From the IMG/VR virus record IMGVR_UViG_2537561603_000005: a DNA stretch of 39,099 nt; one strand, 5' to 3'. Positions 37,233 through 38,193 of the stretch are shown piece by piece. Source of the DNA: a virus. Its lineage: Duplodnaviria; Heunggongvirae; Uroviricota; Caudoviricetes. The notes beneath the pieces were generated by a model. It ran no database searches, was not told the DNA's origin, and saw nothing but the letters and a program-made list of their open reading frames with translations. The first letter of the stretch is position 1; every line of letters starts with the position of its first letter. The translations under genes and the position numbers were made by a program.

Positions 37233-37259
37233 AAATCGATCGTTTTTGTCGATCGATTG
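37233..37259. promoter_or_regulatory. GATC-containing palindrome upstream of com-mom (candidate Dam-sensitive operator)
   Basis: AATCGATCG-TTTTTGT-CGATCGATT: perfect 9-bp inverted repeat with two GATC sites, about 45 nt upstream of com. Confidence 0.45.
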
Positions 37260-37301
37260 AGTGATAAAGATATCAACAACAAAGCAGGAGGTTATGCGGC
37301 C

Positions 37302-37502
37302 ATGTATCGAAACATACGGTGCCGACATTGCAACAAGCTACTGGCACGAGCCAGTTTTAGTTATCTGGAAGTCAAATGTCCGCGCTGTAAAACCCTCAAT
37401 CAAATCACATCACCGAGCGCCACAGAGCACCCCACATACACAAGGAAATCCTGTCGTGGGGAACAGAAAGCAAGTCACATCCCGTATCATCAGCACGCCT
37501 GA
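37302..37502 (+). CDS. com: Com zinc-finger translational activator of mom
   Basis: [35 protein letters not shown] matches the recalled Mu Com pattern; ATG 8 nt after AGGAGG. Confidence 0.75.
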
Positions 37503-38193
37503 ACTTATTCACTATAACGACAATATCGTCGGTTATGGTTCCCGTGAATTACGGGTTGAGACAATAAGTTGCTGGTTGGCCAGACTGGTCATCGTCAATA
37601 AACATTACAGCCACCGTTTCGTAAATAATTCATACCTTCATCTGGGAATATTTTCAGAACGGGAGCTGGTTGGCGTAATGCAATGGGGCTATGCCCTTAA
37701 TCCAAACAGTGGTGCACGCGTCGTAACGGGCACGCAGAACCGCGAATATATGGAGCTTAACCGGTTATGGCTGCATGACTGTATGCCGAGAAACTCCGAA
37801 TCAAGAGCCATCAGTTACGCACTCAAACTAATCAGACAGCTTTACCCTCAGGTACAGTGGGTTCAGTCGTTTGCAGATGAGCGTTGTGGCTGTCTTGGTG
37901 TCGTGTACCAGGCAAGCAATTTTGATTATGTAGGCAGCCATGAAACAACATTCTATGAACTTGATGGCGAGTGGTATCACGAGATTTGCAGGAATGCCAT
38001 TAAACGAGGCGGACAGCGAGGTGAACATCTGAGGGCTAATATCGACAGAGCCAGTGTTCATAAATTCCGCCAGTTTCGTTACATCCGCTTTCTGGACAAG
38101 AGAACCAGAAAACGCCTTAACACAAAGCTATTCAAAGTTCAGCCTTACCCAAAACCACAAACTGTTAAAACCGGTTTGAAAGAGATTGGATGA
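37456..38193 (+). CDS. mom: Mom-like DNA modification protein (start uncertain)
   Basis: Frame open from 37261, overlaps com 3' end as in Mu; GTG at 37456 preceded by AAGGAAA; first ATG only at about 37678. Identified mainly by position downstream of com. Confidence 0.6.

Follow-up and report, generated by a model that had tools for sequence, protein, structure and literature searches.

A com-mom operon with a probable two-part OxyR/Dam operator and a predicted Com-dependent GUG start in a Mu-like prophage of Escherichia coli

Expression of mom in bacteriophage Mu is a textbook case of layered control over a toxic anti-restriction gene, and N6-carbamoylmethyl-adenine in phage DNA blocks many restriction enzymes. 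A com-mom operon and its control region are described here from the 39,099-nucleotide viral sequence IMGVR_UViG_2537561603_000005 of IMG/VR (Caudoviricetes), referred to below, over its whole length, as the window. The window is a Mu-like transposable prophage of Escherichia coli, with the same gene order as prophages annotated in E. coli genomes. The type of system (Mu com-mom, Dam/OxyR, Com) is already well known. The operon is probably governed by a two-part OxyR/Dam operator lying over its promoter, together with a Com-dependent switch at a GUG start codon held in an RNA stem. The features of the region are, from left to right:

37208..37222, no strand: distal OxyR-type half-site ATTTGTTGTATCAAT, without a GATC, placed by consensus score, spacing and conservation
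37234..37258, no strand: perfect palindrome AATCGATCG-N7-CGATCGATT, the proximal OxyR-type half-site (core 15-mer 37239-37253), placed by homology to Mu and P22 and by conservation
37249..37254, plus strand: candidate -35 TCGATC, inside the palindrome (alternative TTGTCG at 37246-51, with a 19-bp spacer)
37259..37270, plus strand: hypervariable 12-nt segment of constant length in the clade alignment, candidate promoter spacer
37271..37276, plus strand: candidate -10 TATCAA (relatives have CATCAA or TATCAT), its distance from the palindrome being constant throughout the clade
37277..37301, plus strand: leader with a (CAA)n tract and, read from the sequence, the com Shine-Dalgarno (SD) sequence AGGAGG (37286-91)
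37302..37502, plus strand: com, encoding a 66-residue zinc-ribbon translational activator (Pfam PF10122, identity to Mu Com, genome annotation)
37417..37430, plus strand: Com-target RNA hairpin GCGC-CACAGA-GCAC with CC-ACA-GAG (37420-27), placed by likeness to Mu and covariation
37430..37461, plus strand: translation-inhibition stem-loop, CCCCAC (37430-35) paired with GUGGGG (37456-61), placed by minimum-free-energy fold and covariation
37456..38193, plus strand: mom, 245 residues from a GTG start, predicted DNA adenine N6-carbamoylmethyl modification enzyme (Pfam PF25680, identity to Mu Mom, PDB 8bv8)
38240..38321, no strand: right end of the prophage with three GTATCAAA repeats (38240, 38275, 38297), placed by match ends and repeats read from the sequence

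The region is a com-mom operon. The first gene, com, starts at an ATG (37302), stops at 37502 and encodes a CxxC...CxxC zinc ribbon that includes CPRCK. Its product matches Pfam PF10122 (Zn_ribbon_Com; E 2e-12, 46.8 bits, cut-off 22.9) and is 47% identical to Mu Com. The second gene product covers the full profile of PF25680 (1-202 of 202; E 8e-78, 261 bits, cut-off 27.1), is 78% identical to Mu Mom across 233 residues, that is, at full length, and matches the solved structure PDB 8bv8, 'Methylcarbamoylase mom' (E 2e-123). A search of NCBIfam returned no match for Mom and only a zinc-finger match below threshold for Com, so the gene identities rest on Pfam, on identity to Mu and on the PDB match. 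In E. coli carriers of the module, the NCBI annotation pipeline (PGAP) names the two genes Com family and Mom. The initial annotation had recognised a Com-like zinc finger overlapping a Mom-like open reading frame (ORF), and the overlap is indeed 47 nt (com stop 37502, mom GTG 37456), as against 50 nt in Mu. Its length of about 230 residues for mom does not stand; from the GTG at 37456 the protein has 245.

Mom makes N6-carbamoylmethyl-adenine from glycyl-tRNA(Gly), according to a structural study of 2026 (PMC13219725). In Mom, mutation of nine residues (W48, H58, Y59, R111, S124, D149, R151, Y159 and W181) abolishes or strongly cuts activity (PMC13219725). The window's Mom retains all nine together with Y28, and thus all ten residues tested in that study, and is predicted to carry out the same adenine N6-carbamoylmethyl modification.

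The start codon of mom had been described as not being an ATG in any plausible position. This holds, because the only upstream ATG in the mom frame (37294) precedes the com start and lies 2 nt after the com SD. PGAP picks the same GTG in near-identical E. coli prophages. The mom frame is open for 195 nt 5' of the GTG (37261-37455), spanning most of com, and the GenBank record of Mu also begins mom at an upstream ATG, ten codons ahead of the GUG. Mom that starts at the GUG, and so lacks the first ten residues of the annotated protein, is active (PMC13219725).

In Mu, the GUG start lies within a translation-inhibition stem, adjoining a short hairpin that Com recognises via CC(N2-3)GAG (PMC6483171). 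In the window, the inhibitory stem-loop is the minimum-free-energy fold (-12.6 kcal/mol, z -2.3), the GUG lies inside its 3' arm, and the mom SD AAGGA (37442-46) is located in its loop, partly paired. The Mu region folds likewise, with a UCCCAC/GUGGGA stem. The fold around the mom start, which had been proposed as a check, therefore yields a stem, CCCCAC/GUGGGG, that sequesters the GUG. The outer pair of this stem covaries among relatives: six distinct sequence types have C-G, the Mu-type ones U-A and one U.G. The stem of the Com hairpin also shows compensatory variants (AUGC/GCAU, GCAC/GUGC, GUGC/GCAU). In the clade to which the window belongs (30 loci with 16 distinct sequences, the scope of all clade counts below), only 1 of 45 columns of the two structures is variable. 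Since GUG-in-stem is documented in Mu and kept in every enterobacterial relative examined, the non-ATG start is the norm of the family and not a local oddity. One nucleotide, C37430, is common to the Com hairpin and the inhibitory stem, so that Com binding is expected to loosen the stem. These features support the presence of a Mu-style translational control pair, as first suggested.

The palindrome upstream of com is perfect over 9+9 positions: AATCGATCG at 37234-37242, a spacer tttttgt, and CGATCGATT at 37250-37258. It contains two Dam sites (GATC at 37238-41 and 37251-54), 13 bp apart. Both properties had been noted initially, with the start of the palindrome placed one base too far to the left. 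Inverted repeats of this kind are not rare by chance: the window holds 10 matches to a short-looped 9+9 repeat (about 7 distinct repeats), and about 2 are expected. Rarity of the palindrome was therefore rejected as an argument. The element is, at the same time, the only GATC pair with 13-bp spacing and the only GATCG-N7-CGATC in the 39 kb.

In alignment, the palindrome falls on the stretch of Mu Pmom that carries GATC sites 2 and 3, AATCGATCG-gtaataca-GATCGATT, with identical 13-bp spacing (Mu promoter region gacGATCgaatcaattaAATCGATCGgtaatacaGATCGATTatgcccc). Among com homologues in genomes and viral contigs, the 13-bp GATC pair occurs in 36 of 49 distinct com upstream regions, in which the arms are complementary at 6 to 9 of 9 positions. 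GATC spacing is thus kept while the arms lose complementarity, which points to selection on the two Dam sites and their register rather than on hairpin potential. By this comparison, the operator is homologous to the OxyR/Dam region of Mu Pmom. The methylation-sensitive control proposed in the initial annotation is strongly backed by comparative evidence, in so far as Dam-sensitive control of com and mom would be expected; the accompanying view that such control is not the same as in Mu needs refining, as the palindrome is the homologue of Mu sites 2 and 3.

In P22 gtr, the GATCs come in pairs, 13 bp apart, each pair within a single OxyR dimer half-site, and Dam methylation abolishes OxyR binding (PMC2909390). 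Half-sites A and C of P22 gtr, read from the P22 sequence, are TTGATCG-N7-CGATCAA, with the same GATCG-N7-CGATC core as the window. Candidate half-sites were scored against the published OxyR consensus ATAGnTnnnAnCTAT, which has 10 specified positions. The proximal half-site ATCGTTTTTGTCGAT (37239-53) and the distal half-site ATTTGTTGTATCAAT (37208-22) each score 7/10, and their centres are 31 bp apart. The Mu half-sites likewise score 7/10 and 7/10 at 31 bp, and those of P22 gtr score 8, 10 and 8 at 32 bp. Half-sites matching at 7/10 are functional in opvAB (PMC4856963). Over the whole window, 59 of 39084 positions reach at least 7/10. Across 14 representative lineages, the mean consensus score is highest at offset -31 (5.9, compared with about 2.8 elsewhere), and two exceptions peak at -32. 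Partner half-sites at other spacings, across a 7-nt gap (37217-31, scoring 6/10) or downstream, were dropped, as the lineages support the -31 offset.

Conservation delimits the same element. Both half-site 15-mers have no variable column in the clade, and the whole palindrome has 1 in 25; the surroundings are less constant, with variation in 10 of 13 columns on the left flank, 4 of 16 in the interval between the two 15-mers and 16 of 21 on the right flank. The conserved module begins near 37205, the point at which two unrelated left flanks meet it, and this is the outer edge of the distal half-site. On this evidence, the palindrome is best read as the promoter-proximal half of a two-part operator. 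No third half-site with a GATC pair is conserved upstream, and to the left of 37205 the clade members have unrelated DNA; there is hence no evident alternative, mutually exclusive site that would give a heritable ON configuration. The next GATC beyond the pair lies 69 bp upstream, in non-conserved DNA. A GATC-free stretch of 2.7 kb (34437-37168) stands immediately before the regulatory region, and GATC is scarcer than expected across the whole window (113 observed, about 148 from shuffles).

The promoter itself is placed tentatively. The sequence TCGATC, inside the palindrome, lies 16 bp upstream of a semi-conserved hexamer YATCAW. With TATCAA as the -10, the two GATCs would fall near -46 and -33, the positions they occupy in half-site C of P22 gtr, which overlaps its promoter (PMC2909390). 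P22 gtr also has TCGATC-17-TACACT, placed relative to its GATC pair as the candidate -35 and -10 are here. The TATCAT variants of the candidate -10 score as reasonable sigma-70 promoters. In a related group with short upstream regions (L051-53, L005), clear TATACT, TATAGT or TAGATT hexamers stand 7-9 nt past the GATC pair, which suggests that there, too, the operator overlaps the core promoter. The operator is about 27 bp closer to com than in Mu and no recognisable activator box follows it, so it would have to overlap the -35 region. The segment after the palindrome has 12 nt in all 16 distinct clade sequences though 16 of 21 alignment columns vary; its hypervariability could reflect a promoter spacer or diversifying selection on promoter strength. 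The leader of one relative (L037) has four CAA units in place of two. AAAGAT (37266-71), favoured at one stage as the -10 for its likeness to Mu TAAGAT, was dropped, as most clade members have AAAGGC.

Taken together, these observations probably describe a com-mom operon with a two-part OxyR/Dam operator over its promoter and a Com/GUG-in-stem switch. Transcription would be gated by the operator at 37208-37253, the OxyR and Dam dependence of which is predicted from its homologues. With the GATCs unmethylated or hemimethylated, OxyR would bind and occlude the promoter; with both fully methylated by Dam, OxyR would be excluded. Com, translated from the overlapping upstream gene, would then bind the CC-N3-GAG hairpin and open the inhibitory stem, exposing the SD and the GUG so that Mom could be translated.

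Several points weigh against this account. The OxyR consensus is loose, and the AT-rich region inflates matches to it. In the candidate -10 TATCAA, as in the CATCAA of most relatives, the usual final T is missing, and a consensus promoter scan found no sigma-70 promoter above its threshold in 37013-37302. Scoring by hexamer frequency missed the known Mu Pmom in a control; promoter placement is thus weak, and hexamer scores lend it only weak support. The Com hairpin of the window contains one C x A mismatch. The late motif of the phage was located at just two sites in the window, and the promoter of the tail genes was undetected too.

This last point bears on whether a phage activator still acts at com. 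The late-promoter element, CGCAAAWCCTGCCC-N14-TAYGCT, occurs as an exact match at 9638, ahead of lys, and at 17823, ahead of the protease gene, and no third copy was found in the window for the tail genes. The two late promoters (9631-9675, lysis genes; 17816-17860, protease/scaffold gene) share 28 of 45 positions, CCGCAAAWCCTGCCC-N14-TAYGCT, and the element resembles the Mu Plys region in part (ATCCCGCACCTGCCACC). The operon could still be activated by the Mor/C-family late activator of the phage (9210-9632, only 40% identical to Mu C), through a divergent or palindrome-overlapping site, with Dam/OxyR only modulating, as in Mu. The short architecture would then be a matter of compaction, with activator control retained. 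This is a live possibility, if well short of an even chance. Mu Pmom requires C (PMC3378877), and Mom expression is toxic (PMC3378877, PMC3299994), so late timing is expected. The C boxes at Mu Plys and Pmom differ considerably, and a weak core promoter, such as the candidate here, is usual where an activator is needed. On the other side, the initial annotation was correct that the shared late-promoter element is missing upstream of com: near com there is no match within 3 mismatches, and the best match to the 45-nt profile reaches 13 of 28 informative positions, well within background. Since other late promoters escape the motif too, its absence is weak evidence for independence from the activator. 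The layout, with only 12-17 bp from the operator to the candidate -10 (42 bp in Mu), leaves no space for a separate box. The segment that could hold a box is hypervariable among near-identical modules, and recombination joins the module to unrelated left flanks near 37205. The stronger proposition, that the clade lost the late-activator box and that the two-GATC OxyR operator over the -35 is the sole transcriptional gate, is decidedly unlikely. If it were true, OxyR on unmethylated sites would keep mom off in the lysogen, and mom would come on when replicative transposition outnumbers OxyR and Dam methylates new operator copies, or else at random in some of the lysogens, in the manner of an epigenetic switch. 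Dam/OxyR logic would then have taken over from a dedicated phage activator in timing a toxic late gene.

The palindrome itself can be read in other ways. A perfect 9-bp dyad fits any dimeric helix-turn-helix protein, the OxyR consensus is matched at only 7/10, and Fis and other factors crowd Mu Pmom (PMC3378877); an operator for another dimeric protein of phage or host, such as SeqA or Fis, with the GATCs incidental or read by that protein, has nonetheless a slim chance of being correct. The palindrome is homologous to Mu sites with established OxyR control (PMC3378877, PMC2909390), the GATC tetranucleotides and their 13-bp register are conserved across lineages where the arms are not, and 12 of 14 lineages have a partner half-site at the 31-32 bp typical of OxyR. 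Action as an RNA hairpin, either as a terminator of minus-strand transcripts entering from the prophage end or as a 5' untranslated-region structure of a longer com-mom transcript, is highly improbable. A terminator scan does flag the minus strand, with a 9-bp stem followed by TGATTTATTT, and on both strands the element gives a fold, with energies of -11 to -12.6 kcal/mol and z-scores of -2.4 to -3.1. The stem, however, has just 4 G-C pairs and its T tract is interrupted; no minus-strand gene terminates to the right of the palindrome, and no conserved promoter lies upstream of 37205. The palindrome accompanies com rather than the minus-strand ORF on its left. In other lineages the arms outside the GATCs are non-complementary (6-8 of 9) with GATC spacing kept, and such selection on the register of the Dam sites argues against the minus-strand terminator.

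The two-part operator and the Com switch belong to a prophage in which com and mom form the final operon ahead of the right end. Gene order runs from transposase A and B through Gam, the Mor/C-family activator, lysis, head and tail genes to com and mom. Similarity to other E. coli prophages ends at 38321-38324; the flanks past this point are unrelated and differ from genome to genome, and the DNA here matches, at 100% identity, a fimbrial usher gene of E. coli that the insertion truncates. This usher gene, on the minus strand and with PapC_N/Usher domains (within 38194-39099), is intact in most E. coli. The three GTATCAAA repeats at the right end are probably transposase-binding sites. Between mom and the end, at about 38229-38269, lies a long-loop hairpin GCGCCGAT...ATCGGCG followed by TTTTT. 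On the left, two strong hairpins with 11-bp and 9-bp stems (36590-36617 and 36642-36670) occupy the interval from the end of a DUF826 gene to the end of a convergent minus-strand ORF (36752-37012/37054). This ORF has no family match, and unrelated DNA replaces it in other clade members. Read-through into com from the tail-fibre operon seems unlikely, given that the two hairpins and the convergent ORF intervene, with the caveat that the plus-strand hairpin in this interval has no T tract.

The regulatory region (37207-37305) and com-mom recur, 92-99% identical, in 233 of 5426 complete E. coli genomes, a set with many O157:H7 strains. As the module occurs in about 4% of complete E. coli genomes, O157:H7 among them, its regulation bears on the timing of restriction-resistant DNA in these prophages. 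A shortened two-GATC operator-promoter without a visible activator box appears undescribed in the literature searched, and searches for methylome or expression data on the mom region of this prophage found nothing. The two control layers, namely the Dam/OxyR operator (31-bp half-sites, 13-bp GATC pair) and the Com/GUG-in-stem switch, would form the conserved and portable core of the module, to which the activator box appears dispensable or replaceable. The practical gain is small: a natural 'minimal' variant of Pmom in which OxyR/Dam control could be dissected without the activator.

Close known systems include the Sp18-type Mu-like prophages found in E. coli O157:H7 and in other strains of the species, which carry the same regulatory region and com-mom. 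They differ from the window only in the 12-nt segment that follows the palindrome, in the CAA tract, in their insertion site and in the DNA to the left of about 37205, which is unrelated. Others are the Com-controlled DNA methyltransferase modules of Mu-like prophages (FluMu Hin1523, Pnm1 Nme1821, Hia5 and B3; PMC3299994). These resemble the window in having a Com homologue directly upstream of a DNA-modification gene and differ in their enzyme, which is a methyltransferase and not a true Mom. In IMG/VR contigs, the palindrome and com cassette also precedes an N6-adenine-type methyltransferase with a DPPY motif (L161, about 3250-3330, minus side) and a C5-cytosine-type methyltransferase (L110, 8340-8600). 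Like mom, both begin VGN..., and the arrangement looks as though one control cassette had been joined at the start codon to different enzymes; the same cassette thus fronts Mom, an adenine methyltransferase and a cytosine methyltransferase. In the com-mom modules of marine gammaproteobacteria (L011, L012, L014, L099) there is no GATC cluster; they share an inverted repeat, CACAGTG-N6-CACTGTGAACCA, some 100 nt ahead of com, and this hints at another regulator in non-enteric hosts.

P22 gtr (half-sites B and C, with phase variation) is alike in its partner half-site about 32 bp upstream and, if the candidate promoter here is correct, in a proximal half-site that overlaps the -35 TCGATC. It differs in its third half-site (A) with a GATC pair, which has no conserved counterpart in the window, and in its genes: gtr serves O-antigen glucosylation, whereas the window has DNA-modification genes plus the translational layer of Com. 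A GATC-bearing half-site over the core promoter marks Dam/OxyR phase-variation switches (gtr, agn43, opvAB), and the window would fit this pattern if its -10 is TATCAA at 37271-76. A further GATC triplet cassette, with the core ATCGATCG-N7-CGATCGAT, was seen in several contigs (L128 605-627, L155 1007-1029, L134, L153, L157, L163, L150). It is flanked on one side by a divergent Dam-like methyltransferase gene and on the other by a family-25-like glycosyltransferase gene, and it may be another phage locus for surface modification under Dam/OxyR control.

Mu com-mom, with its Pmom promoter controlled by Dam/OxyR, the activator C and Com, is likewise among the nearest known systems. In both phages com-mom is the last operon before the right end, and com overlaps mom. 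The GUG start lies in an inhibitory stem adjoining a CC-N3-GAG hairpin, and the Com hairpin of Mu, AUGC-CUGCGA-GCAU, has the same 4-bp stem and 6-nt loop as that of the window. A 13-bp GATC pair lies within AATCGATC...GATCGATT in Mu, with a second OxyR-like half-site 31 bp upstream, as here. Several features differ. Mu has three GATCs (spacing 18 and 13) and the window two, the distal half-site of the window having lost its GATC; the palindrome is 8/9 in Mu and a perfect 9+9 in the window. The GATC pair lies at -91/-78 from the com ATG in Mu and at -64/-51 in the window, 27 bp closer. The C box segment of Mu (ATTATgccccaATAA; ATTAT...ATAA), its T6 tract and its TAAGAT hexamer have no counterpart in the window, the late activator of which (40% identical to Mu C) uses another promoter element. 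In the RNA, the inhibitory loop measures 11 nt in Mu and 20 nt, with an inner helix, in the window.

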